Virus record (IMG/VR): IMGVR_UViG_3300003690_000007
Span: 1-62,604 of that record
Strand: one strand, 5' to 3'
Length of the DNA stretch: 62,604 nucleotides
Origin: a virus
Below the pieces are notes generated by a model that searched no databases, was not told the origin of the DNA, and saw only the letters and a list, made by a program, of their open reading frames with translations. The translations under genes and the position numbers were made by a program. Shown one piece after another: positions 5,254 to 39,108 of this stretch (positions are counted from its first letter, which is position 1; the number at the start of each line of letters is the position of its first letter).

Positions 5254-5267
5254 CGAGGAGATAAACA

Positions 5268-5777: not shown

Positions 5778-5837
5778 GAACCTGCCACCACCAACTAGGG
5801 GCAACCTGCTCCCCGGCCCAACCCAAGGAGATAAACG

Positions 5838-6107
5838 ATGACCAACTATCACCGTCTGACAGCCGCGCAGTTGAGAACCTTCAAGCAGGCTGCCAACCAT
5901 ATGTTTGGGGGCGGCAGATTCACCGTTGGGCGGCTGGCGCGCTGCCTTGACCGTGCTGCTGCCATACGCCTTGTCACCTTGGTTGACCGGCACGGCCTGC
6001 TTGCAGGTTGTAACCAGTTCGCAGCCATTTGCGCCGCATGGTCTGAACCTGTCTTCTGGTGGGACTGCCCATCGAGCGGGACCGCTACTGGTCCCCGACA
6101 CCACTGA
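5838..6107 (+). CDS. hypothetical early protein (89 aa)
   Basis: A degenerate hairpin repeat (GGGGCAACCTGCTCCCC) and aaggagataaacgATG lie upstream. Confidence 0.55.
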   Translation: MTNYHRLTAAQLRTFKQAANHMFGGGRFTVGRLARCLDRAAAIRLVTLVDRHGLLAGCNQFAAICAAWSEPVFWWDCPSSGTATGPRHH

Positions 6108-24551: not shown

Positions 24552-24775
24552 CTGTTGTCGAGGGGGATGATCGGATCGACGCCGAATAGCTCACCGGCTT
24601 TCAGCAGCGCCGCACGCCCCACGCCTCCCTGCCACTCGCGTTCCTCGACCGGGATCACCTTGTTCAATGCCTCGGCGAAATCCGGGTCATCGTCGCAAAC
24701 CCACTCCTGCTCGTCGCCGTCCACGGCGATGCGACCGATGCCGTCGAGGTTGATCCATCCGATTGCTGGCATCAC
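24548..24775 (-). CDS. hypothetical protein (75 aa)
   Basis: 4-nt overlap with the upstream gene. Confidence 0.6.
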   Translation of the reverse strand: MMPAIGWINLDGIGRIAVDGDEQEWVCDDDPDFAEALNKVIPVEEREWQGGVGRAALLKAGELFGVDPIIPLDNR

Positions 24776-26793
24776 AGACCTCGCAACGTGGCGATGACAA
24801 AGCGGAAGTATTCCGGGTCGGACTTGGCGAATCCCGTCGGGTCTTCGAACAGGCGCTCGACACCCATCGAAATCACCTCGGTGGCGGTGATTCCGAATCC
24901 AAACGACCCCATCGTTGCCTTGGGGTCATCGCCGTAGGACGAAGTCTTGTAGAGCTTCCCGGCGTAGGCCGCACGTTGCTGCGAGTCGCCCCGCTGCTTG
25001 CCACCGAAGGCGTCTCGCATCCTGTCGGGGTTGCCGTACTCGTCGAGATCGTACCAGTCGCCGTATCTATACAGCGGCCCATCGTCGTCCTCGTTCATCC
25101 GCGACATGAGGAACCCGAGCGACTTGAGCGCGTAGGTCTTCGTGGCACCGTATTCGATGTGGTGCCCGAACTCATGGGCGACGGTGACGGCGGTGACACC
25201 CGGCGTCAGACGAAGTTCCTGATCGCTGTCCGAGTAGCTCGACCGGTACTTGTGTCTCCCGCTGCTCGGTCCGATGTTGACGTGCCTGACCTTGTACGCC
25301 AGTCTCCCCGAAGGAATCCACCCGGCCACCTTCTCGACGGCCTTGGTGATCATCTGTTTCTTGTCGTCAGAGAAGTGCCCCTTGGAGAACGTCAGTTCGA
25401 CCTGTTGGCTGGTCCCCTCGGGAAGCGTGAGCGCGTCGTGGACCGCGCCGTTACGCTTCTTGCGTAGGTCGTCCCGGTCATCCCTGACCTTCTCCATCAG
25501 ACGCTCCGAGTCGCCAAGCTCTTTCAAGTACCGCTTCCGCTCTTTCGAGAGGTCGTTGGCGGACAGTCCCTTGCGTCGCTTCTGGTGCTCGCTGATGATC
25601 TCCAAGGCGATGTCGTTTGCGTCATTGATCCCCTTGTCGAGCGCCTCGATCTGTTCGTCCCACACGTCGCTGGTGAGCACTTCCTGACGAATCGACTCGG
25701 ACGTTTCGTGGAATCGCTCCTTGGCGGTCTCGTAGTCATGCGAGATCGCCTTCTTGTTTTTGAACAGTTCAGACCGCCAGTTCCGCATCTCACGACCGCT
25801 GATGTGAGCGGCGAGCAGCCGCGACGCCCGGCCTTTGCGGCCCCACTGGAAACAGCGCGCGTGTGACTTGAGTATCTCGCTCGGGATGTCCTTGACCAGT
25901 TCAACGAACCGGCGCTTCTCGTCGGCGCTGCCCTTGTCGTGGGGTTTGAGCTTGCTGCCCAACCGCGCGTAGAACGACCTGACGCTGTTGATATAGACCT
26001 CGTCGGAGCGCGGGCGAAGTTCGCGATCCCAGAGGTCGCTGTGTTCGAGCGCCCTGAGCACCTTGGAGTCTTGTGACGTTTCGGACAGCATCGCCGCCCC
26101 GATCAGCTTTTGCCGACGCTCGACCATCTTCCCAAGTGCCCGCTCTGCACCTCCCGGCGAGTAGTACTTCTCTCCCCACGGAGTCGTGAACTCCACATCC
26201 GCAGCCGCGTGGTACGCGGCGTACGTATCCTTCCACGCTGCCCGGTCTTCTTCGCTCTGCGGGTGTTGGTTGACGTGAAGCTCCTCGTTCAGCCTGACGA
26301 CCTCGTCGGCCTTGGCCTTCGCCGCCTCGTAGGCTGGCTCGATCTGGTCCCAGACCCAGAGCTTCCACTCATCCCGGAAGTCCTCGATCGTTCCTTTGAA
26401 GACCGCGCGGGGTTTCTTCCTGTTCGCCTTGGACTTCTTCTTGGGCTTCTTCTTGGCAGGCTTCTTTGGTGCAGACTTCCTTTCGCTCTTGGGTCGGTGG
26501 TCGTCCCAATCCTCTGGTTGTCCTCCGCTGCCCGAGGTGGTGGAGAACTTGCCGCCCTCGTCACGCGGGCAGTCGTCCAGTGCCGCTTCGGGTCCGCATC
26601 GATGACGGCGATCGTAGAACCCCCTCTGCAACAGTTCGCGGAAGCTGCGGACCTTGCTCGCGCGCGAGAACCGCCGAGAGAACTGGGCCACGGTGTCCTC
26701 GGGTTCCGACGGGTCGAGCATATCGAGCACGTCGGGGTGGACGCCCGGCTGGTGCTCGGACATCTCCACGAACAGGGTCGGCTTGTCACTCAC
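24772..26793 (-). CDS. polyvalent effector protein with C-terminal HExxH zinc metallopeptidase (673 aa)
   Basis: AHEFGHH (nt ~25160-25180) plus a downstream Glu (ATEVISMGVE). Also has a Lys-rich stretch (KKPAKKKPKKKSK) and one linker motif (GFYDRRHRCGPEAALDDCPRDEGGKFSTTSGSGG). Confidence 0.7.
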   Translation of the reverse strand: MSDKPTLFVEMSEHQPGVHPDVLDMLDPSEPEDTVAQFSRRFSRASKVRSFRELLQRGFYDRRHRCGPEAALDDCPRDEGGKFSTTSGSGGQPEDWDDHRPKSERKSAPKKPAKKKPKKKSKANRKKPRAVFKGTIEDFRDEWKLWVWDQIEPAYEAAKAKADEVVRLNEELHVNQHPQSEEDRAAWKDTYAAYHAAADVEFTTPWGEKYYSPGGAERALGKMVERRQKLIGAAMLSETSQDSKVLRALEHSDLWDRELRPRSDEVYINSVRSFYARLGSKLKPHDKGSADEKRRFVELVKDIPSEILKSHARCFQWGRKGRASRLLAAHISGREMRNWRSELFKNKKAISHDYETAKERFHETSESIRQEVLTSDVWDEQIEALDKGINDANDIALEIISEHQKRRKGLSANDLSKERKRYLKELGDSERLMEKVRDDRDDLRKKRNGAVHDALTLPEGTSQQVELTFSKGHFSDDKKQMITKAVEKVAGWIPSGRLAYKVRHVNIGPSSGRHKYRSSYSDSDQELRLTPGVTAVTVAHEFGHHIEYGATKTYALKSLGFLMSRMNEDDDGPLYRYGDWYDLDEYGNPDRMRDAFGGKQRGDSQQRAAYAGKLYKTSSYGDDPKATMGSFGFGITATEVISMGVERLFEDPTGFAKSDPEYFRFVIATLRGL

Positions 26794-29700
26794 TCGTCAC
26801 GCCCTCGGTGTCTTCCCACGGCCCCCAATGCTCCGTCTGCGACATCCATCCCGCCATCTCCGCGTCGTCGTAGGTGTGCTCGACAGACACATCGCAGAAC
26901 TGGTAGTAGCTGGCCTTGTCGTAGAACTGCGTATGTGTTCCATCATAGACAACGTCGCCGATCTCGACCCACGCATGAGCGATTGGGATGTTACCCATCG
27001 TCACCGTACCGTGGACGAGACGCATCTCTCGGAAGTCGTCGTTGCCTGCCGAGAACATATTATCCAGCATCAGCCGCCCGGCTTCCGGGTAGCAGTCGCC
27101 GGGCATCGGGGTGCCCAACGGCCTGTCGATCAGGTTCTTCGCTCCTTCGGGTGCGTCCGCGATCGTGGGATGCGAGAACAGGTGCGGACTGTGCTTCTCG
27201 GCGTAGGCCGTCGCTTCGGCGTGGATCTTCTGACCCTCCTTGGCCGAGACGACTTTCCCGCCGCCCGAGGTCTTCCCCCCGCCAGCCTTGGTCGCGAAGC
27301 GCCCGCCCTTGTCCCGCTTGATCTTCGACTCGTCGAACTTCCTGCCGTAGAATCCTCGGCGGTAGAACTCCTTGTCGAGCTTCTCCGCGTCATCGTCGTC
27401 AAGTCCGAGCGCCTCGCTGCTGTCGTCGGTGCGCTTCGGCCAGTCGGCGTTGTGAACCAACTCGTCGAAGTCCAGTACGAGCACGTCCGGGTCGCGGTCC
27501 TTCGCGTACCACGCCGGGCTGTCGTATCCGGGAGTGCCAACCAACCGGCCACTGGTGAGCAGATCGTCACCCCGACCCTCGAACAGTGCGCCCGTCGGCC
27601 CCTTCCACTTGCTCTTGAGGTGCTCGCGGTACGCCAAGCCAGCAAACTGTTCGGGGTCCACAACGAGATGCTGCTCCTCTGGTCGCAACGCAGGGTCTTC
27701 GCCCACACGATCAATCCAGAAGTGCGTGTCTCCGTCGTGCGGCATCACGACGACTTCGGATTCAGTCAGGCAGCCCACCCCCGTGGTCGGCATACTGAGG
27801 ATCGCCTCGATGGGAACGTGCGACGCTGCCACGACAGAGGCGGTTCCCCGCGCGAAGCTGTTCGGCCCCCCGCTCGCGAAACTGGTGGCCGTCGAGAGGG
27901 TCATCGAGTACGAACTCATCGGCTGGAACAGCGCCTCGGCGTGAAGGTGCTTCGAAGGGACGAACTTGCGCAGGTCGTCTCTTGAAATATCGAAGATACC
28001 CTCCGGCGGCTTGCGGCCATCCTCTACCCAGTTCATCCCTCTGAACAGGGTGATCGTGTCGCCCGGCTTGAAGCCCATTTCCTTGAGTTTGTCCTGCGTG
28101 TTCTCGTACTGAGACCTCACGAAGTTGCGCATATCCTTGGCGATATGCCCTTGGTAGAACTCTCGCGCCTGAGTCCTCGGCTCGTTGCCGTCCTTGATGC
28201 GCTGCCACTCTTGGCTGGTCTTCTCCCATTCGAGATAGGGTTCGTGGTCGGTCGCAGACTTGTAGAGCGCGTCGTAGAAGTGCCGCACGTTCGTGTCGTA
28301 GTCCGCCTCGGGGTCGAAGCCGACGTGATCTCTCACGAAACCGGGGTCGCGATAGTTGCCGCCCGGCTTCTCGCCGCGTGCCTGAACATTGAGATACTCC
28401 ATCTGGCGCAAGTGGCCGGACCACAATTCCTCGGTGACGTTCACCGTCCGAGTTCCGGCGGTCAACTCTCCAGCCTCGTCGCGCCCGTACCACCCCTCTT
28501 GGGCAACCTTGAACGTCACCCCCTGATCATCGCGAGGGTCGTAGTCCGTCAGCGTGTCATCATCGACGGCCTTCCTCATGCGAAGATTGTCATCGACCAA
28601 CTTCGCAAACTCGTCGGCGTTCGCGATCGGTGGCCGTCCGCTCGGTGACCACGGGCCGGACGTGACTGCGCGTTGAACATTACGCGCCGCCATGACGTGC
28701 GTGGGAAAGCTGGTCGACGGCATCTTTCTGTCGTATGCCTGCGGAGACGTTTTCGACAGCACCCGATACAGGTCTTCGAGTTCAGGAATGTCCGGCAACG
28801 GTTCTGGTTCGAAACGAGGGTCCGGGTCCATGCCGAACTCCTCGGCAGCGGCCAACTGCATCGCGATCGCTTCGAGGTGTTCGTCGGCGGAAGTCGTCGC
28901 CCACAGATCCACCCACATCCTGACTGCGCGTTCGGCAGTATGCCGACCACGGGGGTGGGCTGCCTGTGACCGCCCGCCGAGGGATGGGTCACGCTTCACC
29001 ATCCGCTCGGTCAGGGACTTGTTGAGCGCAGCCTTCGATGCGTTTCGCGCCTCTTTGCTGAACAGTGACGGGTGAGGCACATCCCCCTCGTCGGGGCTGT
29101 GGGTGCTCCCATACCAGAACGCCGCCGCGCGCGCGTCGGCCTCGTCTCCTCCCTTTCCTAGCGAGTCCTTGAGTATCTCGATCACCGAGTTCGTGAGGCC
29201 GTCCTGAAACTTCTCAAGGTTTCGCATCGACCCGACGGTGTCGGTCTTCACCTTCCCGGTGCCCGCCTTGGTCGAGAACCGCCCGCCTTCGTCACGCTTG
29301 ATCTTCGATTCGTCGAAGGGCCGCTTGTAGAACCCTCTCCGGCAGAACTCCCTGTCGAGCGGACTACGGTCAGTGAAAACCTGCAACTGCTTGCGATAGA
29401 TGTCTACGATGTCAACAGCATCACCGGACCACGTTCTCCACTCGCCGAGCGCGGACATCTGATGACCCTGAGCACCGTCGACCGGGGACACCTCAACCGT
29501 CTTGATCTGAGACTCGTCGATGTTCGCCAACGCCTCGGGGTCGGACAGGAAGAAGCCGGGGTTCATCGGACCGCCCGCGTACTCGCGGAAGGTGAGGTAG
29601 TTCTTGTACATCTGGAAGCGGTCGTACAGTGCGTCCTCTGGAGGTTGGGCGCGTTCCCACGCAGCAAACTTTCCCGGTGCCGTCTCGTGTGCTCCCTCAA

Positions 29701-30625
29701 TCACACGCCACTCACCCGCACCATCCTTGGGTTTCTCGTCCTTCATCTCCTCGGCAGTCTTCGGCCACCCGTGACGGTACTCGGTGCCATCCATTGCGCG
29801 CTTCATGCCCGGAGGAAATTCGTCTCCCTCTTCCCAGTTCCGATCCCACATCGAGATCAGGTCTTTCAGGAACGGCTTACCGTTGGTGGATCCTCCAGTG
29901 CGAGCATCCTCGACCAGATCCTGTGGAGTGATCTCTCCCCTCGCGAACTTGCGACCCTCCTTGAGCAAGCTGACGATAGCGTCGGCCACCTCCTTGTCCT
30001 CAGTGAAGCTGACCGTGTCGTCGTCTCCTCCACCAAGCCCCAGCCCGGCCTCCTGACCCAACTCGACCCTGCTCTTGAGTCCGGTCTCCCTCACGGCATC
30101 GGAAGCGGTCGTCGCGTGGTACATCTTCTCGGGTAACTCGACCACCCCCTGAATCCCATCCGGAACACCGACGGCGAAGAATCCCATCTTGTCGGCTACC
30201 TTGGCATCAATCGCCCCGGTAGCGATTGCCAGACGTACCTGTTCCTTCCACTCACTCTCCCGGATTCTGTCGTGTCCGAACGCCCGGCGCACGACCTCCT
30301 TGCCGAACTTCTCATACAAGTCGTCGAGTCCGAGATCTGATTCAAACACCTCGGGGTGGGGATTGTCGAGTCGTGCGAACTCCTTCACCGGCATCCTCAG
30401 CGCGGGGAACTCGGACAGCTTGTGTCGCTTGGCCCGCCTCGACTTCTTCTGGTCGGCAGGCGACGACCCGCCCCCAGCAGACTCCGAGAACTTCCCATCG
30501 TCGGCGCGCGGGTGCTCGTCCTCCTTCCAGCGCGCATAAAACTCGCGAGCGAGCAAAGTTCGCACACTGCGAACCCTGCTCGCTCGCTGCACGGCGTGTC
30601 GGATGGTCTGGCTACTTCTTGCCAT
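26786..30625 (-). CDS. polyvalent effector protein: R-S-ExE ADP-ribosyltransferase + C-terminal transglutaminase/papain-like Cys-His-Asp domain (1279 aa)
   Basis: LFRG ... LSTATSF ... TESEVVV (nt ~27740-28060). GDCYPEAG ... IAHAWVEIGDVVYDG (nt ~26940-27100). Three linker motifs lie at nt ~30468-30545, 29255-29335 and 27275-27355. Confidence 0.75.
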   Translation of the reverse strand: MARSSQTIRHAVQRASRVRSVRTLLAREFYARWKEDEHPRADDGKFSESAGGGSSPADQKKSRRAKRHKLSEFPALRMPVKEFARLDNPHPEVFESDLGLDDLYEKFGKEVVRRAFGHDRIRESEWKEQVRLAIATGAIDAKVADKMGFFAVGVPDGIQGVVELPEKMYHATTASDAVRETGLKSRVELGQEAGLGLGGGDDDTVSFTEDKEVADAIVSLLKEGRKFARGEITPQDLVEDARTGGSTNGKPFLKDLISMWDRNWEEGDEFPPGMKRAMDGTEYRHGWPKTAEEMKDEKPKDGAGEWRVIEGAHETAPGKFAAWERAQPPEDALYDRFQMYKNYLTFREYAGGPMNPGFFLSDPEALANIDESQIKTVEVSPVDGAQGHQMSALGEWRTWSGDAVDIVDIYRKQLQVFTDRSPLDREFCRRGFYKRPFDESKIKRDEGGRFSTKAGTGKVKTDTVGSMRNLEKFQDGLTNSVIEILKDSLGKGGDEADARAAAFWYGSTHSPDEGDVPHPSLFSKEARNASKAALNKSLTERMVKRDPSLGGRSQAAHPRGRHTAERAVRMWVDLWATTSADEHLEAIAMQLAAAEEFGMDPDPRFEPEPLPDIPELEDLYRVLSKTSPQAYDRKMPSTSFPTHVMAARNVQRAVTSGPWSPSGRPPIANADEFAKLVDDNLRMRKAVDDDTLTDYDPRDDQGVTFKVAQEGWYGRDEAGELTAGTRTVNVTEELWSGHLRQMEYLNVQARGEKPGGNYRDPGFVRDHVGFDPEADYDTNVRHFYDALYKSATDHEPYLEWEKTSQEWQRIKDGNEPRTQAREFYQGHIAKDMRNFVRSQYENTQDKLKEMGFKPGDTITLFRGMNWVEDGRKPPEGIFDISRDDLRKFVPSKHLHAEALFQPMSSYSMTLSTATSFASGGPNSFARGTASVVAASHVPIEAILSMPTTGVGCLTESEVVVMPHDGDTHFWIDRVGEDPALRPEEQHLVVDPEQFAGLAYREHLKSKWKGPTGALFEGRGDDLLTSGRLVGTPGYDSPAWYAKDRDPDVLVLDFDELVHNADWPKRTDDSSEALGLDDDDAEKLDKEFYRRGFYGRKFDESKIKRDKGGRFATKAGGGKTSGGGKVVSAKEGQKIHAEATAYAEKHSPHLFSHPTIADAPEGAKNLIDRPLGTPMPGDCYPEAGRLMLDNMFSAGNDDFREMRLVHGTVTMGNIPIAHAWVEIGDVVYDGTHTQFYDKASYYQFCDVSVEHTYDDAEMAGWMSQTEHWGPWEDTEGVTSE

Positions 30626-31550
30626 CGTCCTTGAGTTGGATCAGGTACGGGAAGCGCTTGCCCTTGGGTACATCGTCCGACGGAAACTCGACACCGCTGT
30701 CGTCAATCGGCAACCGCCTCAGTTCCTCGTCGCTCGGCATCTTCACCTTGCGGTCCATCGCCCATTCGATCTTCGCCCGTTTGGCCCACGTTCTCATTCT
30801 GCGAACGGGTACGATCAGGTTGAAGCTCTCCCCGGCACCGCGCACGAGCATACCGATCAGACGCCCGTCTGTCTTGTAGACACCGCCGCCACTCGAACCG
30901 GGAAACGCCGGGCACGTCGTTTGATCGAAAACCGTCTTGCCGATCAGTCGACCATGTTGGGACATGATGCCGCTCGTCATCGAGTTCGACCCCAGACGAC
31001 CTCCGAGCAGGCTCCCGACGTGGTACAACCGGGTTCCCAACGGCGGGATCGGTTTGTCGAGGTAGAACTCCACGCTGCTCTTGATGAAGCCGCGCTTGCG
31101 CACGCGCAGGAGCGCGAGATCCTCTCCGTGGTCGGCGTCGGAATAGCGGATGACGGCCGCTGACATCTCAAGAACGCCGACGGTGCGTCCATCTTCGATG
31201 AGCGTCTTCACAACCTTCGCGTCCTTGAACTCGATCACCGTCCGCTTCGATCCAGTCTTCGCGTCAACCACCTGTCTTGTGCTGCGAAGGTCATCAATCA
31301 CATGGGCTGCCGTCCACACGAACGTCTGGTCTCCTCGGACGAACGCCACGCCGGAACCCTCCGACGAGGACGCGCGTATCGTCACCGAGATGTCTTGAAG
31401 GTGTTGGGGAACGCCAGCCTCCGGCGTGCAGTCCTTCTCGGCGTCTGCGGCGGCGATCATGGAGGTCGTCACCGGGTAGCCGCCGGGTGAAATCGGGATC
31501 AGGCCGAGCGTGGCAATCGACAGTGCTGCTAGAACGAGGAACGGTTTCAT
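30612..31550 (-). CDS. trypsin-fold (S1/DegP-like) serine protease with N-terminal signal-peptide-like helix (312 aa)
   Basis: MKPFLVLAALSIATLGL. Catalytic triad: His in WTAAHV, Asp in DLALLRV, Ser in PGSSGGGVY. Confidence 0.8.
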   Translation of the reverse strand: MKPFLVLAALSIATLGLIPISPGGYPVTTSMIAAADAEKDCTPEAGVPQHLQDISVTIRASSSEGSGVAFVRGDQTFVWTAAHVIDDLRSTRQVVDAKTGSKRTVIEFKDAKVVKTLIEDGRTVGVLEMSAAVIRYSDADHGEDLALLRVRKRGFIKSSVEFYLDKPIPPLGTRLYHVGSLLGGRLGSNSMTSGIMSQHGRLIGKTVFDQTTCPAFPGSSGGGVYKTDGRLIGMLVRGAGESFNLIVPVRRMRTWAKRAKIEWAMDRKVKMPSDEELRRLPIDDSGVEFPSDDVPKGKRFPYLIQLKDDGKK

Positions 31551-31576
31551 CGGTCACTCCTTTGACCAGAGGGTTG

Positions 31577-33202
31577 TCAGTCGTCTTGACTGTCTGTCGT
31601 GGTGTATTCGTCATTCTCCATTTCATCCCACATCGCGTCGAGGTCAGCCAGTTCCTCGGGCGACAGGTCCGGCTCCTCGACCAGAGCGGTGGCCTGTTGT
31701 GGGGGCGTGTCCTTGTCTTTCTGGTACTGGTCGGGGAGCTTCCGCGCTGCCACCTTGCGGCGGATGTACTTGTCGAGAATCTTGCTGCTCTGAGAGCCTT
31801 CGCTCGTGTCAAACACGAGATGGACGATTCTGCCGAACTTTGTCCACCACGCACGGCCCTCCTTATGCTTGAGCAGTTCGAGAATGTCGACGCTGCATTC
31901 ATCCTCGAGTCTGAATGCAGCGTCAGGACAGTCGCCTGACAGTCCCAACTTCTCCAGCAGGTCCGGGGAAACTTCGCTACCGTCGACTGTTTCGAGCAGG
32001 TCGAAGATGTCAACGCTGGCCCCGCCGTATCCCATCTTCGGCCAGACATCGTAACCGACCACTGGAGATAGTCCCTCCCCACCCTCCCCAAGTCCCGGTC
32101 CCTGCCCCGCCGCCGATACTTTGATTTCAGCAATTCCTTCTTCGCGACAGAACTGAACCTGCTTACTCAACATTCGCGACCCGATACCTTGTCCCTGATA
32201 TTCAGGTTTCACCCTAAGCGTCTGGTTTGTAACCGTTCGGGTTCCATCTCCCTGAAAGTAAAACATTCGATTCGCATGCACCTTTTCATGTTGGACCGTC
32301 ACATCGGCGACCCAAGTTCCCGTTCTGGTGTCACTGGACAGCAAGACCCACACCTTCGCGTCATCGGGGGCACCGACCAGACTCGCCATACGGGAAATGG
32401 GAATTCCCGTAGCCTTCGTGAACAGCTTCGAATTCACCCCCGGAGTGCGCGACCCCACGGGGATGGGGATCCGACCGAAGCTCCTGTGCCCGTAGCGCAC
32501 GCCTCCGCTGGCGACCTTGGCCTTGGATGGCTGGATGTTCGGGCTGGATACCGGATCCTTGTCCTTCACGCCCGCGTACTGGACTTCATCGAAATCGTGA
32601 GCCGCGTCGAGCAGATCGTGGATGTTGGCCTGAACTTGTAGCAACAGCATCTTCGAGTTCGGGTCGATAAGACGCTGTGCCGCCCACCTGTGGTGTCCGT
32701 CGAGGATGTGCCCGTCCGCGCTCGCGAGGACGCGGCTGTCGGACTTGGACGGATCGAACTTTCCATCGCGCATCGCCTGTGCCATCCCGTGAACCTTGTC
32801 CCAGTTCAGTTCCTCTTGAGTCCCCTTCAGATCTTGGACCGACACCGACGCTTCCTTGATCTCGATACCCTTTGCTTGTAGCTGTTCGACGAACGGCTCG
32901 ATGTTGTCGGCGGTGATCTGTGGCATATCGTGTCTCTTCAGGCCGATGTTATCCTCGAGGATCTGGGCCTCCCGTGACTCCTGATCAGAATCGGGTTCCG
33001 CTTGGCCGGGCGCGGTGGACGTGCCCCCGGCACTGGAGAAGCGACCGGGATGCTTGGCATCACCGCCACGGTTCACCGTGGACTCATCCCACGTCTTCTT
33101 GTATATCTCTCGTCCCTGCTCCTCGCTCGCGAGCGGAACCAACGGGAGATCGGCAATCACGCCGTCTATCTCGACACTCCCCCGGAAGATTTCAGGAATC
33201 AT
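31577..33202 (-). CDS. polyvalent effector protein: ParB/Srx-like nuclease domain + GNAT acetyltransferase (541 aa)
   Basis: LKGTQEEL...ILDGHHRWAAQRL (nt ~32678-32708). RVKPEYQGQGIGSRMLSKQ (nt ~32170-32196). One linker motif, YKKTWDESTVNRGGDAKHPGRFSSAGG. Acidic C-terminus. Confidence 0.75.
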   Translation of the reverse strand: MIPEIFRGSVEIDGVIADLPLVPLASEEQGREIYKKTWDESTVNRGGDAKHPGRFSSAGGTSTAPGQAEPDSDQESREAQILEDNIGLKRHDMPQITADNIEPFVEQLQAKGIEIKEASVSVQDLKGTQEELNWDKVHGMAQAMRDGKFDPSKSDSRVLASADGHILDGHHRWAAQRLIDPNSKMLLLQVQANIHDLLDAAHDFDEVQYAGVKDKDPVSSPNIQPSKAKVASGGVRYGHRSFGRIPIPVGSRTPGVNSKLFTKATGIPISRMASLVGAPDDAKVWVLLSSDTRTGTWVADVTVQHEKVHANRMFYFQGDGTRTVTNQTLRVKPEYQGQGIGSRMLSKQVQFCREEGIAEIKVSAAGQGPGLGEGGEGLSPVVGYDVWPKMGYGGASVDIFDLLETVDGSEVSPDLLEKLGLSGDCPDAAFRLEDECSVDILELLKHKEGRAWWTKFGRIVHLVFDTSEGSQSSKILDKYIRRKVAARKLPDQYQKDKDTPPQQATALVEEPDLSPEELADLDAMWDEMENDEYTTTDSQDD

Positions 33203-36200
33203 ACCAACTCCCTGTCTTTCCAGAATGCGTAGACGTTCGGGTATTCCTCCCGAATCTTATTGCGGTCCTTGCGGGTCAGGATCAGTCGACCGAACTCCGC
33301 GAATCCTTCACGGGCATCTTGGCTCGCGTGGTTTGTGAGTTCGCCATTTGAAAGGTCCACCTTCCACGCCTGTTTCCAGTCCTCCTCGCTGGACAGGTGT
33401 CCGCTGAACCGACCATCGATGGCGTGTGTCATCGCGTGAGCAAAAATGTGTACCATCCGCGCACCCTTCGGAAGCCCGCCTCCCCCGTGGTCCGTGTAAC
33501 CGTGGGGGTCGATCATGTGCAAGCTGGCCGTGTGCGGATCATAGGCCGCGATCGGGTGACCATCCCTCCCCCAGCCTATGCTGCCCATCAGGCCGATCGA
33601 TTCGTCCATCGCCTCCCGGCTCCCGTGGAACAACATCTGCTTGACTGATCGGGACATCCGGCGGCGACCGCGTTGGGACATCTTGTTGGTAAGGTCTGTC
33701 ACCGCTCGACCCATGACCTTCCGGCGAGCGGCAGTGCTGACCCCACCTGATTTGATGGCCGAGTGTTCGAGACCTTGCTTGCGTCTCTCGCCGAGTTCGG
33801 CCCTCACCGTTGCCGCGCCTTTCTCCATGCGCCACAGCCTCTGGGGTACTCCCGGCGCATCGGGGTCTTCAGGAAGCTCTGCCATGATAAGCCATGTATC
33901 ACCGCCGGGCATCTTGATTTTATCATTCGCCTTCTTGCGGCTGCGCGTCGTCGCGGGTGCGTCCTTGCCGGGAGCCGCTGCGCCGCCCTTTGTGGCAAAC
34001 TGTCCCTTGTCGTCGCGCTTGATGTTCGATTCTTCAAACTGCTTCCGGTACTGCGCAGCTTCGGTCGATCCGAAATTGAAGTTGAGCATGAACTTGGAAC
34101 ACGGCTTGCCGCCTTCCTCGCAGAACTCGGTGTAGAAATCGCTGGCGTCCTGCCGGTAGTCGAACCCGGACCCCTTGTGGGCCTGCCCCTTGTTATCGCC
34201 CGTCGTGTAGACAAAGTGGTTCTGCCCAGCATCGGACCAGATCACCGAATCCTGATTGTACTTCTCGCCCATCTCGACCATCTCGCCGCGTGACGCCTCG
34301 GGGATCATCACCAGAATCGCCGCTTCGTCGTGACCCTCGTATCGCCCGTTGCCTTCCGAGAACACGAAGCCGCGAGCTACGAGGTCGTCCTTCAGCTTGT
34401 CGTGGCGGGCTGCCGCCTGCTCGGGCGACATATCCGGCTCGTAGTTCGGGTTCTTGCCCGCGCTGATCAGGCCGACGATGCCGTGCTTCAGCAGGTCGTC
34501 GACTTCCTCAAGCGTGAAGTGGACGTGCTCGCCCTTGCCCGGTTCGCGGCGTGCGATCTTCTCGGCCAGCCCGCCGACCTTCAGCCGCTTCCCCGCCTCG
34601 GCGGCGTGCTGTCGCCACACGTCGGGAACCTGCGGCTTGATCGGCAACTTGTCGGGCGCGGTCGTTGTTGCCGATCCACCGCCTGAGCCGAACTTCCCAT
34701 CAGCAGCACGCGGGTGATCGGCTTCCCGGAACTTCGCGTAGTCCTCGGTCAACTCGTCGTAGGTATCCTGTTCTGCCTCGGTCCACTTGCTGAAGAAATC
34801 CTCGCCGTACTTCTCGTCCATCTCGAACGTGAAGTCGGACACATCGTCATACGTCTTCTTTGGTTCGGGCTTCTTCTCTGCCGACCAGACCTCTACCTCA
34901 TAGCCCCATCCGGGGAGCGGCTCACGATAGCTTTCGCCCACACCTCTCCTCAGATTCACGTCGTCGAAATCCCCCTCAAGACCAATGTAGGCGATTCTGT
35001 TTCCGGGGGTTGATCGCTCGCCAGCCCATTTTCCAGTTTCGAGAATCTCCTTGAACTCCTTGATAGACCCTCGCCACCTCTCAACGGCGGTGTTCTCGTT
35101 TTCCCACGCGACCCTGACCATGACACCCGACGACCGAACCGTTCCCGTCAGGCCCATGTTGCGAGCCTGCTGTTTCAGTTCCCAGATCGCGTCGTCTCTC
35201 AGCTTGCGAACCTGAGCTTTGAGTTCCTTGACCTTTCCGACCTTCCATCCTGTCTTGATGTCCTCGGAAGACCAGAGACCCTCGTCGGTCTCGTCGGCGG
35301 CACTCCCGCCGCCTGCCTTGTCCGAGAACTGGCCGCCCTCGTCGCGATCGTGCTGCGACTCATCGAACTGCTTGGCGTATGTGATGCGAGGGTCTTCTGG
35401 ATCGAAGTCGCCCTTGTTGCCGATCGCCGACTTGATCTGTGTCGGCTCGAACGCGATGAACGTCGTGGCCCGAAGATTGTCGGAGTAGTAGTCGTTGAAC
35501 TTGATCCCGTCGAACCCGGCACTCACAGCCTGCGCTCGCAGAACCTTCACAATCTCGTACTGGTTGAGAATCTGGTAGAGGTCGCGGCCCGCAACCGGGA
35601 AGTCCCGCATCGACACGTCCAGACCGTTGTCTTTCAACAGCGACACCAGCTTCTTGGTGCTGACCCGGCGCGCTGGCAACGAGGTCAGGTCGAGCGGGTT
35701 CTCCATCTTCGCGAAGACAGGCTTGATCTGTGAGCCGACCCCGAGACCTTTCTTGCCCTTGTATCCGAATAGGTAGTCTGGCTCGTTTCTGTCCTCGTGA
35801 ACCTCCCGCATGAGTTCCCGTGCTGACTTGATCGCACCCTTGACCTCGGACTTTATCCCCTTTTGCTTCATGAGACCCTTGGGGTCTTCGATGCTCCAAT
35901 CGAACTTGCCACCGATCTCGTCGGCCAAGTACATGGCGTGCTCAAGGTCCAGCCCGGTTGCGATAGCCATCCCGCTGGGCTTGTGTGTCACGCTGTAGTA
36001 AGTCTCGTCTGGATCGTGGACGGGAAACATCCCGCTCCCTTTCTCAAACGGGGTGTGCGACCCACTAGCCAAGACGAGATCGTGGTGTGGGGTGATGTAT
36101 CCGGACCGGTCCTCCATGCCGTCCTGAGTCCCAATCTGGACCGTGGCCTTCTTGTAGTCGAACAGTTCCACCGTCGGTTTATTGAGTGGCTTTCCAGACA

Positions 36201-39108
36201 CAGCGAACTCGGACGCGAACTTGGGGTCGTCGCTCAGGTAGTGCCAACCGAGACCGGCCAGCCCCTCGTCGTCGCCACGCCAGAACTTACCGAACGTCTC
36301 GAAGCTCTGGTCGGTCCCGTGGTAGAGACGCAGCGGCTCGCCCTGATCGTCAATGACCTTCGAAGCGCCAAACCACTCCGTGAACTTCGGCGTGTCGGTC
36401 TGCTTCCCCTTCGACTTCTGCTCCGACGAGCCGTCTCCTGATTTCTCAGAGAACCGACCGGGGTGCTCGGAGTCACCGCCACGACTCACCTTCGACTCGT
36501 CGAACTTAGCGTGCCGCTTGGCGTACTTGTCGTCGGTTTCGGCCCCCTGAACAAACCCAGAATCATGCACACCCAAGTACCAGTCGGCTTCCGGGAAAAA
36601 CCCGTCGAGCCTTCCGCCGTTGGTGATCTTGACCGTGGACACGCCTCGCTGCAAAAACGCGCCTTTCCGAAACGCCTCTACGTCAATGCCCCGTTCTACC
36701 GACCTCGGGAACTTGTCCCCAAACTCCCACCCGCTGATCGCAGCACCAAACTCCTCGGCTTCTTTCCGGGACTCCTGTTTTGTGATGGGGCCAATCCCGT
36801 CCATGAACTCATCGACCTGACCTTGCCAGTCTCTCGCGGCAACGGACACCCCGTACTTGTTGTATTTCACCGCAGACTGAATCAGGAACTCTTGCCACTC
36901 CAAGTGGCTGTCGAATGTTCGCATCCCGCCGCTTTTGATCAGCACCGGCGTCTTGGTCTTCTTGTCGCCAGCGGGTGTCCTTGCATAAATGTCCGCTTCT
37001 GACGGAACACTGGTGAAGAAGACTCCGAGTGTGTCGAGTATCGGCTTGCCTGTTCGCAAGACCTTGCCGGTTGTAAGTTTTCCGTGTGCATCCGCGTCGT
37101 AGCTCTGGCTTCCGTGCCACACGACCCGTGGGTCACCGTTGTCGTCACGAAGAATGTCGTCTCTCCCCTTTGCCATCTTCAGCAAAGACTCCGAGGCTGA
37201 CTTCTCGCGGGGAGACAACGCTGTCGGGTCGCCGCCCGACTTCTCGGAAAATCGCCCCGGATGGTCGGGGTCACCGCCGCGAGAAACCTTGCTCTCGTCG
37301 AACTTGGCGTGCCGCTCGACGATGTGACGGTCAGCCCGCTGGCGCTCCCCCGTGTCAAAAGGGATGTCCCGCTGCTGCCACTTCCCGTCGGTCGAGACGT
37401 AGGTAACGGTCTGCCCGTCCACACTGGCCTCACCAAAAAGTTCCCGCAGGACAGAGTCGGTGTCCCGGTCGACATCGGGCGGGGGGGGCACGTCGTCCAT
37501 CCGGTCCATCTGTTCGACCCCATCCTGCGGGGTTGGTGGCTGCCCAACTCCACCCGGTCCCATACCGGGAAACATCCCGCCACCGCCGCCGGGTGGCGCG
37601 CCGCCCATCTGGTCCTCTGGCATCTCAAGCACGCGGTCCTCCTCGGTCGGCACCGCCGCACCGATGAGTTCCATCACGTCGCTTTCCTTCAATTTAGCGC
37701 CCATCTGGAACGCCATCTGCCACGCGCTGAGCTTCTCGGACGGGTCTTGCTCCTCCACATCGATCTTGAAGGAGATATGGATTCCCTTGGCCGATGGGAA
37801 GTTCCAGTCCTTGATGTATTTGACGAGTTGGTGGGTGATCGTCTCCTCCAAGTTCGTCGCGTCGTACTTGATGATTTGCAAGAACGTGTCGAGATGTAAC
37901 TCGGCCAGCCCGCTGCCAAGCCCTGTTGCTTGGGCCTCGGACGAGAGGGTCTGGCCGAGTATGTATCGTTTGATCCTGTGACCGTAGTAGTCGTTCAGGA
38001 TGTTCTGGAGCGCGTCGATGCCACCCATTCCCGGTTCGATGATCTCGACTCCGAAGGCGTGCGCGTCGTCGCCCATCGGTTTCGGGACGAGGACGATGTT
38101 CCGCTGGTTGGCGACCCGCTCCTCGGCTGCGATTCGCGCCTTCTTTTCAGCTTCCTCGTTGCCCTGCGGGTAATACCAGATCTCGATTCCACCCGCCGAC
38201 CGCTCGAGGTACTCCATCAGGAACGCGAGGCACTCCTGCTTCTGAAACCAGTCCCAGTAGATTCTCGATCGCAGGCCGACGCCGTGAACCATCCCGGCGT
38301 CGATGAAGTTGTGCCAGTCTCCGTCCTCGATCGTGTGCTTGTGAATCGCCAGCAGAGGACGTTCCCAGTCTTTTAGAAAGTAGGCCAGCCCGCTCTCGGT
38401 CGGCTCCACGTCCCATCGACCCGAGATCTTGTCGTCAGACATGAACCGGGATCCGATCTTGATCCCGACCTGATCGGGCTTGTTGTCGGCGCTTCCGTCG
38501 TCATACCGAAAGACGAGCTTGTCCCCGTTGACCGGAATCCATCCGGGGTTGTCGCGGTAGGCGGCGGGCATCACCCGCATCCTGCCGTTGACATCGCTCC
38601 AGCGGTATCGGTGCTGCACTGCGTAGCGTCCGTACCACACCGCGTGCAGTAGATTGAACCGATACTCGGTGAACCGATGTATCCGGTTCAGGATCTTCGT
38701 CAGTTCCTCGACGAGTGCCACTTGCTCGGTCGAGTTCTCGTCCTCGGGTTCGAGATGCCAGCCAAGCATCGCGGTGCAGCGCTGCCTCGCCTCGACGCAC
38801 TCCATGATCCCGCAGTCGTTCCGCATGAAGCGCGCGTTCTCGCGCGAGTCGCGCAGGGCTTCGTCATTTGCCTGATAGACCTTCGAGAATGAACCGGAGA
38901 TCCCGGCGAACGACAGGACGTGCGGGATGGGGAACTTGCCGAAGTTCGGCGCGGAGCCGGGAATTCCCGTGGCCGGGTCTGTCGCTGCCTCGTTCCGCTC
39001 TTGGACAATCTTCTCGATAAAGCTCGCGGGCCTGCGATCCTCCCCGTTGCCGTTGCCGTTGCCGCTGGCTGCTTGCAACGCATCGGTCAAATCGCGAACC
39101 TTCGCCAT
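33199..39108 (-). CDS. portal protein (Mu gp29/DUF935-like, about the first 500 aa) fused to ~1,450 aa of polyvalent effector domains (1969 aa)
   Basis: Portal hallmark GQTLSSEAQATGLGSGLAELHLDTFLQIIKYDATNLEE, then a Gly/Pro linker (GGAPPGGGGGMFPGMGPGGVGQPP). Two ART-like modules follow (VVWHGS...FFTS; WFGASKVIDDQGEPLRLYHGT...QIKSAIGNKGDFD). Then a DUF3293-like LISAGKNP module and a degenerate metallopeptidase end (FAHAMTHAIDG...EGFAEFG). Five linker motifs. Confidence 0.75.
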   Translation of the reverse strand: MAKVRDLTDALQAASGNGNGNGEDRRPASFIEKIVQERNEAATDPATGIPGSAPNFGKFPIPHVLSFAGISGSFSKVYQANDEALRDSRENARFMRNDCGIMECVEARQRCTAMLGWHLEPEDENSTEQVALVEELTKILNRIHRFTEYRFNLLHAVWYGRYAVQHRYRWSDVNGRMRVMPAAYRDNPGWIPVNGDKLVFRYDDGSADNKPDQVGIKIGSRFMSDDKISGRWDVEPTESGLAYFLKDWERPLLAIHKHTIEDGDWHNFIDAGMVHGVGLRSRIYWDWFQKQECLAFLMEYLERSAGGIEIWYYPQGNEEAEKKARIAAEERVANQRNIVLVPKPMGDDAHAFGVEIIEPGMGGIDALQNILNDYYGHRIKRYILGQTLSSEAQATGLGSGLAELHLDTFLQIIKYDATNLEETITHQLVKYIKDWNFPSAKGIHISFKIDVEEQDPSEKLSAWQMAFQMGAKLKESDVMELIGAAVPTEEDRVLEMPEDQMGGAPPGGGGGMFPGMGPGGVGQPPTPQDGVEQMDRMDDVPPPPDVDRDTDSVLRELFGEASVDGQTVTYVSTDGKWQQRDIPFDTGERQRADRHIVERHAKFDESKVSRGGDPDHPGRFSEKSGGDPTALSPREKSASESLLKMAKGRDDILRDDNGDPRVVWHGSQSYDADAHGKLTTGKVLRTGKPILDTLGVFFTSVPSEADIYARTPAGDKKTKTPVLIKSGGMRTFDSHLEWQEFLIQSAVKYNKYGVSVAARDWQGQVDEFMDGIGPITKQESRKEAEEFGAAISGWEFGDKFPRSVERGIDVEAFRKGAFLQRGVSTVKITNGGRLDGFFPEADWYLGVHDSGFVQGAETDDKYAKRHAKFDESKVSRGGDSEHPGRFSEKSGDGSSEQKSKGKQTDTPKFTEWFGASKVIDDQGEPLRLYHGTDQSFETFGKFWRGDDEGLAGLGWHYLSDDPKFASEFAVSGKPLNKPTVELFDYKKATVQIGTQDGMEDRSGYITPHHDLVLASGSHTPFEKGSGMFPVHDPDETYYSVTHKPSGMAIATGLDLEHAMYLADEIGGKFDWSIEDPKGLMKQKGIKSEVKGAIKSARELMREVHEDRNEPDYLFGYKGKKGLGVGSQIKPVFAKMENPLDLTSLPARRVSTKKLVSLLKDNGLDVSMRDFPVAGRDLYQILNQYEIVKVLRAQAVSAGFDGIKFNDYYSDNLRATTFIAFEPTQIKSAIGNKGDFDPEDPRITYAKQFDESQHDRDEGGQFSDKAGGGSAADETDEGLWSSEDIKTGWKVGKVKELKAQVRKLRDDAIWELKQQARNMGLTGTVRSSGVMVRVAWENENTAVERWRGSIKEFKEILETGKWAGERSTPGNRIAYIGLEGDFDDVNLRRGVGESYREPLPGWGYEVEVWSAEKKPEPKKTYDDVSDFTFEMDEKYGEDFFSKWTEAEQDTYDELTEDYAKFREADHPRAADGKFGSGGGSATTTAPDKLPIKPQVPDVWRQHAAEAGKRLKVGGLAEKIARREPGKGEHVHFTLEEVDDLLKHGIVGLISAGKNPNYEPDMSPEQAAARHDKLKDDLVARGFVFSEGNGRYEGHDEAAILVMIPEASRGEMVEMGEKYNQDSVIWSDAGQNHFVYTTGDNKGQAHKGSGFDYRQDASDFYTEFCEEGGKPCSKFMLNFNFGSTEAAQYRKQFEESNIKRDDKGQFATKGGAAAPGKDAPATTRSRKKANDKIKMPGGDTWLIMAELPEDPDAPGVPQRLWRMEKGAATVRAELGERRKQGLEHSAIKSGGVSTAARRKVMGRAVTDLTNKMSQRGRRRMSRSVKQMLFHGSREAMDESIGLMGSIGWGRDGHPIAAYDPHTASLHMIDPHGYTDHGGGGLPKGARMVHIFAHAMTHAIDGRFSGHLSSEEDWKQAWKVDLSNGELTNHASQDAREGFAEFGRLILTRKDRNKIREEYPNVYAFWKDRELV

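Follow-up and report, generated by a model that had tools for sequence, protein, structure and literature searches.

A short conserved peptide tag on the modules of phage proteins encoded beside head-assembly genes, with a probable role in packaging or processing

What does a short peptide do that recurs twelve times in five proteins of a single phage? The question is raised by a stretch of viral DNA of 62,604 nucleotides (IMG/VR record IMGVR_UViG_3300003690_000007), here called the window, in which the original prediction had seen twelve copies of one linker motif, placed at domain boundaries of five proteins. The proteins that carry this peptide, hereafter the tag, are listed below, together with modules of the portal fusion.

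33199..39108, minus strand: portal fusion ORF, five tags
37324..39108, minus strand: Mu-type portal domain of the portal fusion (Pfam Portal_Mu, E=7e-41, aa 95-483)
35389..36396, minus strand: ART-PolyVal ADP-ribosyltransferase module (Pfam, alignment, AlphaFold)
33202..33762, minus strand: C-terminal zincin-like module of the portal fusion (alignment, AlphaFold model, Foldseek)
31577..33202, minus strand: ParB-GNAT ORF, one tag
26786..30625, minus strand: ORF1279, three tags
24772..26793, minus strand: ORF673, one tag
59822..61798, plus strand: ORF658, two tags

The effector domains combined in these proteins are Portal_Mu, ART-PolyVal, S-AdoMet-lyase-like and zincin-like in one case, and ParB-like and GNAT in the other. 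Portal homology of the portal fusion reaches about aa 615, and portals elsewhere that are 49-57% identical have different sets of tagged modules attached. The C-terminus of the portal domain, which bears the five tagged modules, is expected to face the capsid interior. The zincin-like module of the portal fusion was matched by Foldseek to anthrax lethal factor and PPEP-1 (E about 3e-4); it contains HAMTH in place of the HExxH of its relatives and is, judging from this motif, probably inactive.

Twelve tags and their placement in the window

Each of the 12 copies is read in frame with the long ORF that contains it, as follows.

37246..37317, minus strand: portal-fusion tag 1, aa 598-621, ERHAKFDESKVSRGGDPDHPGRFS, directly after the portal domain
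36448..36519, minus strand: portal-fusion tag 2, aa 864-887, preceding the ART-PolyVal module (pLDDT about 44-63)
35323..35382, minus strand: portal-fusion tag 3, aa 1243-1262, TYAKQFDESQHDRDEGGQFS, ~8 aa past the end of the ART domain
34687..34746, minus strand: portal-fusion tag 4, aa 1455-1474, canonical HPR form, preceding the S-AdoMet-lyase/DUF3293-like module
33994..34053, minus strand: portal-fusion tag 5, aa 1686-1705, preceding the C-terminal zincin-like module
33035..33106, minus strand: ParB-GNAT N-terminal tag, aa 33-56
30485..30544, minus strand: ORF1279 N-terminal tag, aa 28-47, HPR form
29273..29332, minus strand: ORF1279 internal tag 2, aa 432-451
27293..27352, minus strand: ORF1279 internal tag 3, aa 1092-1111
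26542..26601, minus strand: ORF673 Cys-bracketed tag, aa 65-84, followed by a 44-aa Lys/Pro-rich spacer
59885..59941, plus strand: ORF658 Cys-bracketed N-terminal tag, aa 22-40, followed by a hydrophobic membrane-helix-like stretch
60590..60646, plus strand: ORF658 Cys-bracketed internal tag, aa 257-275, between the ParB-like and weakly RelA/SpoT-like parts

The residues R, G and F were invariant (12/12). When the six-frame translation was searched with the loose pattern R[DAG]x1-8G[RKQ]F[SAG], the 12 matches were exactly the listed copies, as against 2.2 matches on average, and 8 at most, in residue-shuffled controls. A 13th copy was absent from the window according to an HMM of the 12 copies (next best E>0.5), a scan that is circular as regards its own source copies. 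The twelve copies were thus confirmed at the predicted places and in the coding frame, and chance controls did not reproduce them. The three Cys-bracketed copies are true variants of the tag: P0121, a 39%-identical homologue of ORF658, carries canonical-type tags at both ORF658 positions. The stretch containing portal-fusion tag 4 was also matched by the 'portal' profile PHROG 15528.

Every copy in the window is located between or ahead of modules defined by Pfam, PHROG or BLAST, or at a protein N-terminus; N-terminal tags were present in four of the five proteins, and tags also occur internally. In 11 of the 12 cases a hydrophobic-poor stretch of 11-44 aa comes next, the exception being the first copy of ORF658, where only 3 aa precede the hydrophobic segment. 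Two AlphaFold models assigned the tags a pLDDT of about 40-63 and the adjoining cores one of 80-95. Tag, spacer, ART domain and tag form a recurrent unit, and its alignment displays a regular succession of domain end, ~8 aa, tag, 10-20 aa and next domain. The predicted position at domain boundaries was therefore supported by module maps, spacers and low pLDDT, and these, together with the ART alignment, identify the tag as a boundary element and not as part of a folded enzyme domain. One might still regard it as the edge of neighbouring folded domains, or as a chance or low-complexity similarity, given that the first residues of portal-fusion tag 3 lie close to the ART domain and have a pLDDT of about 73. 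However, the same peptide stands ahead of or after unrelated domains and at residue 2 of many proteins, and chance is excluded by the shuffles and the database search, which leaves this explanation largely refuted and extremely improbable.

At the DNA level, internal tags 2 and 3 of ORF1279 were the only similar pair (80% over 109 nt). The remaining window copies use different codons at the conserved residues, and no other DNA repeats joining them were found. Selection is on the peptide, not on the DNA. This bears on the possibility that the tag is a cassette-exchange junction, i.e. a recombination point for module swaps without any role of the peptide, as has been proposed for VENN in CdiA and for the Rhs core end. 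Modules do occur in varied orders and with varied partners, with a tag at each junction, and the ORF1279 pair would fit such a history. Unlike at the VENN/Rhs junctions, though, there is no conservation of DNA: codons at conserved residues vary freely among the other copies, the amino acids are conserved in GC-rich genomes as well as in AT-rich ones, single genes with a tag begin at a start codon of their own, and the trend here was for synonymous-site conservation to be no higher in tags than in flanks. A DNA-repeat or recombination origin was rejected on the differing codons and the single DNA-similar pair, and a mere exchange junction is very improbable.

Consensus, spread and genomic context

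From 492 instances, the consensus [FW]-D-E-S-K-H-P-R-D-x-x-G-[KRQ]-F was derived, which is followed by 10-45 flexible Gly/Ser/Thr/Lys-rich residues; the tags of the window are a divergent version of it. The database scan proposed in the original prediction, run with a profile of the 12 copies, retrieved, from 1.84 billion cluster representatives, 1,040 proteins at E<=1e-3. The best 150 of these were all multi-copy, with 2-16 tags at a median spacing of 265 aa. Among the same best 150, the first tag lay within the first 60 aa in 55%, and a tag within 60 aa of the C-terminus was found in only 2.7%. Similarly, in IMG/VR and GTDB loci, which were retrieved by exact degenerate DNA patterns, 55 of 121 tagged ORFs had an ATG 0-4 codons ahead of the aromatic residue in [FW]DESKHPR. 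The tag belongs to the downstream module, on its N-terminal side, and the functional unit is the tag, then a spacer, then one enzyme domain. Such units appear as single small tag-first proteins, strung into 'polyvalent' chains, or behind a portal or a scaffold-linked domain, and different proteins contain the modules in reshuffled combinations, joined at the tag. A tag behind the portal was observed in the window, in Orimi01, in the L018 family and in FP_Brigit.

Tag-bearing phages and prophages have hosts in at least 10 phyla, with the peptide near-invariant, and were found in Clostridia, Bacilli, Bacteroides, Desulfovibrio, Planctomycetes, Verrucomicrobia, Treponema, Melainabacteria and actinobacteria. 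When three tag variants were compared by tblastn with 50,697 phage records, about 30 records matched, a lower bound on prevalence among isolates since tblastn is insensitive for a 20-aa query. A word-indexed protein search with a 44-aa motif alignment retrieved 12 short fragments with tags at their N-termini; the same kind of search with aa 560-1300 of the portal fusion gave no scoring match, and this protein is not on record as an exact sequence. Pfam searches of 39 multi-copy proteins detected no family in more than 10 of them; the one that reached this number was ART-PolyVal, and none covers the tag. No NCBIfam family matched the tag, no PDB chain contained it in a profile search at E<=10, and neither motif strings nor a description were found in the searchable literature. 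The tag is therefore apparently undescribed in these sources.

The domains of tagged proteins include ART-PolyVal, zeta toxin, NUDIX, GNAT, InPase, topoisomerase IB, RelA/SpoT, portals and zincin peptidases, which is a phage-type polyvalent repertoire. Where the locus was readable, neighbouring genes encoded the large terminase, an SPP1-type portal or Phage_min_cap2/MuF. The view of the tag as a mark of head-module proteins thus extends to a larger family than the one first noticed. In several GTDB pieces the tagged ORF adjoins ordinary cellular genes, so a head-module context is established for part of the copies only. Tagged phages differ in the families to which their portals, capsid proteins and terminases belong. 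Phage Mu H, F and I and phage P1 DarA, DarB, DdrA, DdrB, Hdf, Prt and Pro are without the tag; consequently, what is known of their processing is not transferable.

Packaging, cutting or action after injection

Since the tag occurs on proteins encoded beside head-assembly genes, and does so across many bacterial phyla, its probable function is that of a packaging and/or processing signal for capsid-internal proteins. We tentatively prefer, at somewhat below an even chance, to regard it as the leader of a capsid-cargo module, serving for docking and/or proteolytic separation. According to this model, the tag is exposed and would be recognised either by some part of the head under assembly or by a processing peptidase. 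Its recognition would bring the module into the procapsid or hold it there, and would mark where the polyprotein is to be cut into single domains, which could then exit together with the DNA and exert their effect in the next host. We infer that the modules are packaged and that the tag is bound and/or cut by a partner. The fusions of tagged modules to the portal and, in L010, to a scaffold-linked domain speak for the model, since both are proteins that one expects inside the procapsid. If an effector fused to the portal is to leave the capsid, a cut at or near the tag would be needed. As for ORF658, its packaging with the other tagged proteins is only weakly suggested, because its gene is located in a divergent plus-strand block away from the late genes.

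Several observations speak against a leader. It is difficult to see how phage-encoded receptors, divergent as they are, could all fit a peptide that hardly varies over at least 10 host phyla. A single-domain protein with its tag at residue 2 offers no second module for a cut to release, and a portal fusion, being anchored anyway, does not need five tags for targeting; from these placements it follows that neither function alone accounts for all of them. Finally, the classic packaged proteins P1 DarA, DarB and DdrB and Mu H and F have no tag.

Cutting alone, with no targeting, would require a peptidase that recognises the tag, and the following window genes were considered as sources of proteolytic activity or as parts of the head module.

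24775..25752, minus strand: ORF673, C-terminal part, in which the HEFGH zincin motif (nt 25162-25176) is intact
30612..31550, minus strand: ORF312, trypsin-like serine protease (Pfam Trypsin_2, E=4e-15) with a signal-peptide-like N-terminus, among the tagged genes
23009..24259, minus strand: ORF416, uncharacterised N-domain at aa 41-235
21765..23003, minus strand: ORF412, scaffold-like acidic protein, upstream of the major capsid gene
20218..21264, minus strand: major capsid gene
41287..42864, minus strand: large terminase, on the same strand as the portal fusion and the capsid gene

Tail genes are also present in the window. Its proteases are trypsin-like and zincin, plus the ORF416 domain of uncharacterised kind; no T4 gp21-type prohead protease was matched by Pfam or PHROG. 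The C-terminal part of ORF673 is, by its motif, a candidate processing peptidase. ORF312 had no homologue in 103 tagged loci (tblastn) or in 150 tagged proteins, and was rejected as a general partner of the tag. ORF416 is a probable occupant of the prohead protease position, to which its location and scaffold fusion are the only pointers: 120 homologues of its N-domain were mostly fused to a scaffold-like tail. It had no PDB or Pfam match and no significant similarity to Mu I, which left a Mu I-type protease unsupported by sequence. The ORF416 domain family was detected in only one other tagged locus, the relative L010, in which a canonical tag lies between the ORF416-type domain and the scaffold. 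No protease family or receptor universal to tagged loci was found.

If the tag is a cleavage site only, the zincin metallopeptidases of polyvalent proteins (here ORF673) would recognise it, with the invariant Phe in a hydrophobic S1' pocket and the cut between [KRQ] and F. Zincins favour a hydrophobic P1' residue, in keeping with this arrangement. HExxH motifs were present in 44 of 150 tagged proteins compared with 10.8 expected, a four-fold enrichment with a C-terminal bias, mostly in the last module, and 13 of the 18 HExxH sites in the loci fell inside tagged ORFs. The predicted fold of the window module resembles those of anthrax lethal factor and Pro-Pro endopeptidases, enzymes whose substrates are extended peptides with Pro. 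Such peptidases have also been proposed as processors of polyvalent proteins by Iyer et al. 2017 (PMC5512222). Nevertheless, HExxH occurs in just about 30% of tagged proteins and in 16 of 60 tagged loci (the loci being short pieces), and in the many single-domain tag-first proteins a cut would remove only about 15 residues. An AlphaFold model of tag 5 with the adjacent zincin-like module displayed no confident docking (tag pLDDT 58-59). We consider cleavage without targeting unlikely, if well worth keeping in mind.

Conversely, the tag might only target or retain, binding a procapsid component (portal, scaffold or shell interior) and never being cut. A short conserved peptide, a flexible spacer and a cargo make up the architecture of a cargo-loading peptide, and tags at the extreme N-terminus of free-standing effectors encoded beside terminase, portal and MuF would suit this function. 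What it leaves unexplained is why every module should have a tag of its own, with as many as 16 in one protein, and why tags occur on modules already fused to a portal; moreover, the receptors that come into question vary too much to suit a peptide of such constancy, and uncut portal fusions would be unable to deliver enzymes. Targeting alone is quite doubtful.

The near-invariance of the tag over many host groups hints at a partner that is better conserved than the head proteins are. This could be a universally conserved host component bound after injection, or the tag could be a handle for unfolded modules in the tail. One tag per module is consistent with a per-module handle, and the location of the ORF658 gene outside the late genes also speaks for such a role. 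On the other hand, no host partner was identified, the tag is not known to resemble clamp, SSB or ClpX motifs, and the readable contexts are head modules, which points to assembly. The tag of L010 would have no obvious role after injection, because scaffolds are normally not retained in mature heads. A post-injection role is, all in all, improbable. An equally improbable but broader proposal is that the tag is a portable cross-phylum signal of a new kind, read by one highly conserved partner (perhaps some host component, or the ejection path itself) that would load, thread or position every head-carried enzyme module of tailed phages. If so, the tag alone would predict the injected effector repertoire of uncultured phages, and foreign proteins could be loaded into capsids by means of it.

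Relation to known systems and use as a marker

Polyvalent proteins were described by Iyer, Burroughs, Anand, de Souza and Aravind (2017, PMC5512222) as large head-module chains of unrelated effector domains, among them ART-PolyVal, GNAT, ParB and zincin peptidase, for which packaging and processing by their own peptidases have been predicted. The proteins of the window and most of the database matches share this composition: the window combines two or more unrelated effector domains in one polypeptide (portal fusion, ParB-GNAT), encodes them together with a portal-terminase packaging module, and has a zincin-like domain within the protein set (HEFGH in ORF673, HAMTH in the portal-fusion module). 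In contrast, the tag also heads many single-domain, non-polyvalent proteins, and the prototypes, P1 DarB and DdrB, are tagless. Term searches of the main text of that paper found no mention of such a linker or spacer motif. The tag is a concrete, testable candidate for the long-postulated processing sites of polyvalent proteins.

Polymorphic toxins of the MuF type (SPP1 gp7 / Mu F; Jamet et al. 2017, PMC5576092) likewise have toxin and effector domains that are encoded at the head-module position next to the portal and enter the capsid from there, with the MuF domain as the vehicle through portal binding (PMC6316719); capsid entry of the tagged proteins would be a parallel. The text of PMC5576092 does not mention a linker, cleavage or a conserved motif. 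The link to MuF/SPP1 gp7 drawn in the original prediction is one of context only: tagged genes often adjoin MuF or Phage_min_cap2 genes, but Mu F, H and I are tagless, and the window gave no Pfam match to PF04233 or Phage_min_cap2 in nine large ORFs, including all five tagged ones, and no MuF-like Cys signature in any frame.

The phage and shell systems with short signal peptides offer further parallels. The T4 capsid targeting sequence is a short N-terminal leader which directs internal head proteins into the head and is removed at maturation. Prohead-protease sites are L/I-x-E for T4 gp21 and S/A/G-x-E for phiKZ/SPN3US. The tag likewise has a hydrophobic-x-Glu, [FW]-D-E, near its start, and cleavage there would be hypothetical. 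However, it is longer and far more conserved than a T4-type leader, occurs internally as well and in many phage lineages, and the window is without a T4-type protease. Encapsulin cargo-loading peptides, in turn, consist of a short peptide, a flexible Gly/Ser/Pro spacer and an enzyme cargo inside an HK97-fold shell. The tag shares this layout of short conserved peptide, flexible spacer and cargo, and might hypothetically bind the shell, but its consensus differs, its copies are repeated within one chain, and the window is that of a tailed phage with terminase, portal and tail genes. For SPN3US, head-protein processing is treated in PMC10052503.

The variable effector start of secreted toxins is marked by motifs such as VENN of CdiA, the Rhs core-end and MIX of type VI effectors. 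The tag is similarly a short conserved mark of the effector start, usable to find effectors; unlike those motifs, which belong to bacterial secretion systems, it occurs in a phage head context and at the N-terminus of each module. Sequence gives little clue to the proteins that phages carry in the head and inject, such as anti-defence enzymes, toxins and transcription starters. The tag could serve as a simple marker for such modules, including hundreds of uncharacterised domains that follow it, its positions would be natural module boundaries for cloning, and it is possibly a handle for loading chosen proteins into capsids. Tags were present in three cultured phages, namely Pseudomonas phage Orimi01 (portal-tag-ART), Mycobacterium phage Onyinye (gp16, tag-ART) and Gordonia phage JKSyngboy (gp16, tagged), which make the question directly testable.

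Twelve tag copies at module boundaries

All twelve copies of the ~20-residue tag were found in frame at the positions originally predicted, within five long ORFs: the portal fusion, the ParB-GNAT protein, ORF1279 and ORF673 (named by length in aa) and the ParB-RelA/SpoT protein ORF658. A loose pattern run over all six frames of the window returned 12 matches, exactly these copies, against a mean of 2.2 (maximum 8) in residue shuffles, and an HMM built on the twelve found no additional copy in the window. Arg, Gly and Phe of the tag were invariant in 12/12 copies. The copies all precede or separate modules recognised by Pfam, PHROGs or BLAST, which bears out the proposed domain-boundary position. 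In two alignment-based AlphaFold models, pLDDT of the tags was ~40-63 versus 80-95 in the adjoining cores.

In 11 of the 12 copies, a stretch of 11-44 residues with few hydrophobic side chains comes after the tag. The exception is ORF658 copy 1, where only 3 non-hydrophobic residues precede a hydrophobic, membrane-helix-like stretch (LPVVVGIPGPLGVIASIVATKIAAA, aa ~44-68, window ~59951-60025) instead of the usual hydrophilic spacer. The Cys-bracketed copies (two in ORF658, one in ORF673) are genuine variants; P0121, a tagged database protein with 39% identity to ORF658 along its full length, carries KKFDESKVNRSSDGTF and PWDESKVKRGQPDNPGQF at both equivalent ORF658 sites. A resembling stretch was seen in ORF416 (23009..24259(-)), where NPWVAAGLGALAGSALKSCPPCPGQGRFRTS (aa ~245-277, window ~23429-23527) consists of a hydrophobic stretch and then CPPCPGxGx[FW]R. 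This is conserved in the five nearest homologues, is like the Cys-type tag and is not scored by the HMM; it is possibly a degenerate thirteenth copy.

What is conserved is the peptide rather than the DNA: codons for the conserved residues vary between the window copies, and DNA similarity was confined to ORF1279 copies 2 and 3 (80% over 109 nt). The ParB, ART, zincin-like and other modules of the window match differently placed modules of other proteins, and portals 49-57% identical to the window portal have other module sets attached. That the tag itself is a recombination junction, a reading on which both the mosaicism and the DNA comparison bear, we consider highly improbable. A second ADP-ribosyltransferase-like module, missed by Pfam, was observed in ORF1279 (aa ~758-922, 27860-28354; LFRG … SSYSMT … ESEVVV); it matches ART modules in about a dozen other tagged proteins.

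Distribution and placement of the tag family

The family extends well past the window: the 12-copy profile matched 1,040 proteins at E<=1e-3 among 1.84 billion cluster representatives, 123 of them at E<=1e-10. The best 150 of the 1,040 are 244-7,334 aa long and contain 2-16 copies each. The general consensus of 492 instances is [WF]-D-E-S-K-H-P-R-D-x-x-G-[KRQ]-F-[GAST]-x-G-G-G, with its H-P often being I-K, V-S, H-D or C-P in window copies. The giant protein P0068 (7,334 aa) carries 16 copies of the tag and no fewer than five tag-ART-PolyVal units; its C-terminal zincin is similar to the ORF673 C-terminus.

Between copies the median distance is 265 aa. In 55% of top proteins the tag first occurs no more than 60 aa from the N-terminus, and only 2.7% have a copy within 60 aa of the C-terminus. 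From this N-terminal bias and scarcity near the C-terminus, it follows that the unit is tag, spacer, domain. In aligned ART-PolyVal units, the domain end (…QIKSAxGNxGxFDPxDPxIxY) is followed within ~8 residues by the tag, then by 10-20 spacer residues and the next domain. A Pfam scan of 39 tagged multi-copy proteins detected ART-PolyVal in 10, together with other ADP-ribosyltransferases, zeta toxin, NUDIX, GNAT, InPase, topoisomerase IB, RelA/SpoT, SprT-like, DUF2213, and Mu-type and HI1409-type portals. This repertoire is that of phage-type polyvalent proteins as described by Iyer et al. 2017 (PMC5512222), whose main text gave no match in a term search for a tag-like linker or spacer. Neither Pfam nor NCBIfam has a model covering the tag itself, no PDB chain with the tag was found, and the motif strings did not occur in the searchable literature.

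Exact matching of a degenerate DNA pattern encoding DESKHPRDxxG[KRQ..]F retrieved 59 IMG/VR loci and 44 GTDB species-genome stretches, the hosts of the latter including Clostridia/Christensenellaceae, Bacilli, Bacteroides, Desulfovibrio, Gammaproteobacteria, Planctomycetes, Verrucomicrobia, Treponema, Melainabacteria and Kiritimatiellae. In 55/121 tagged ORFs of the IMG/VR and GTDB loci, an ATG lies 0-4 codons ahead of the aromatic residue, and many encode single-domain proteins of 125-330 aa beginning M-x(0-3)-FDESKHPRDxDGKF. The commonest neighbours of tagged ORFs were large terminase, SPP1-type portal, Phage_min_cap2/MuF and HI1409-type portals. Head-module families in common were found by BLAST in 16 of the 44 GTDB pieces; in some others cellular genes adjoin the tagged ORF, and these may be prophage edges.

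Among cultured phages, gene 4 of Pseudomonas phage Orimi01 is portal-tag-ART with a head protein next, gp16 of Mycobacterium phage Onyinye carries the tag at aa 2-27 and then ART, and gp16 of Gordonia phage JKSyngboy is tagged. Tagged portals occur in Faecalibacterium phage FP_Brigit and a Helicobacter prophage, and in several unrelated phages the tag stands directly behind the portal domain. Mu H/F/I and P1 Dar proteins are without the tag. Pfam matched no MuF domain in nine large window ORFs scanned, and a MuF-like Cys signature was absent from all frames of the window.

Peptidases, scaffold link and a proposed role of the tag

In a related tagged locus (L010, portal 57% identical to the window portal), a 720-aa protein (L010 427-2589(-)) joins an ORF416-type N-domain, the canonical tag NFDESKHPRDEDGKFGEGGGGGG, a ~100-aa module and a scaffold part that is ORF412 (21765-23003(-)) in the window. 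Of the 120 homologues of the uncharacterised domain at ORF416 aa 41-235, almost all are joined to a scaffold-like tail (MALSPEDVxQIVDAxEQLDWVQWVK) which in the window is the separate gene ORF412; none of the 120 carries the tag. The prohead-protease position of ORF416 and the scaffold fusion recall the Mu I/Z protease-scaffold arrangement. ORF416 is without Pfam, PDB or Mu I similarity, and sequence or structure support for a protease was not found.

HExxH was present in 44/150 tagged proteins versus 10.8 +/- 3.8 expected, a four-fold enrichment, with most of the motifs in the last module. Of the 18 HExxH sites in the loci, 13 lay inside tagged ORFs; only 16/60 loci had any. In the window, the HEFGH of ORF673 is intact. 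The portal fusion ends in a module that belongs to an AHExxHAxDG…EGFAEF family but reads HAMTH at aa 1891-1895 (33424-33438): with HExxH in 8/8 aligned relatives, the window copy has lost the catalytic Glu and kept EGFAEF. The model of this module is similar to anthrax lethal factor and to Pro-Pro endopeptidases (E ~3e-4). The trypsin-like ORF312 (30612-31550(-)) had no counterpart in any other tagged locus examined. It begins with a signal-peptide-like hydrophobic segment, MKPFLVLAALSIATLGLIP, a sequence feature suggesting that it is exported rather than active in the procapsid.

Placement of the tag rules out a purely structural role. Its location N-terminal to every module, at the extreme N-terminus of free-standing effectors, behind portals and before a scaffold, always in a flexible segment, points to a signal recognised by another molecule. 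Two functions could be served: i) separation of modules at the tags, and ii) incorporation or retention of the tagged module in the procapsid. As for i), portal fusions would need it, since a portal-bound enzyme cannot be injected; the cut might be made by the zincin peptidases enriched in tagged proteins, whose S1' pocket the invariant Phe would suit. As for ii), nothing else obvious would explain why a single-domain protein whose gene neighbours terminase and portal carries a tag at residue 2. Because each fits different evidence, we tentatively favour a combined leader that would work as the T4 capsid targeting sequence does, a reading we regard as quite possibly correct. Its main weakness is that no universal partner occurs among the loci examined, yet the peptide is nearly constant across phyla. 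This leaves some room for a partner conserved among hosts, or for an action of the tag at ejection, which we consider unlikely.

Earlier work has described polyvalent proteins, MuF toxins and the leader peptides of head-internal proteins; the tag's consensus, per-module placement, use on free-standing effectors and breadth are absent from the libraries and literature searched. The tag can serve as a marker of effectors predicted to be injected and supplies a concrete candidate for the processing sites of polyvalent proteins, and the cultured phages Orimi01, Onyinye and JKSyngboy make it directly testable.

Gene order of the window

The 62,604-base window (G+C 60%) has an exact 91-nt direct repeat at its ends (1-91 = 62514-62604). 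The identical ends make this a complete phage genome, 62,513 bp in length; the repeat is either terminal or the overlap of a circular assembly. Replication-type genes (exonuclease, primosomal/O-like) lead a single long block on the minus strand, which continues into the late genes.

Late block of the window, in gene order
41287..42864 (-): large terminase
after the terminase (-): Mu-type portal fusion, 1,969 aa
then (-): ParB-GNAT protein, followed by the trypsin-like protease
then (-): ORFs of 1,279 and 673 aa
then (-): ORF416, ORF412 (scaffold-like) and a cement-like protein
20218..21264 (-): major capsid gene

ORF658 had been assigned to the same packaged set on account of its tags. The shared tag stands; packaging is no more than a tentative prediction, with the gene lying in a divergent plus-strand block by the genome end, outside the late genes.

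No close cultured phage was found (best portal identity <30%), and the names of ORF416 homologues come from Planctomycetes MAGs. The gene 44809..46221(-) contains repeats of 69-nt period at 45203-46126 (23-aa units, 5-8 copies), and its 470-aa product is without a PHROG match. An intergenic element (CTAACCGGGGCnnCGCCCCACAACC, then GAGGAGA…ATGAC) occurs six times in the early-looking region on the plus strand, at 236-279, 675-718, 4798-4841, 5229-5272, 5799-5842 and 62417-62460. The element places a GC stem-loop directly 5' of a ribosome-binding site and start codon, and could act in termination or processing, coupled to restart.
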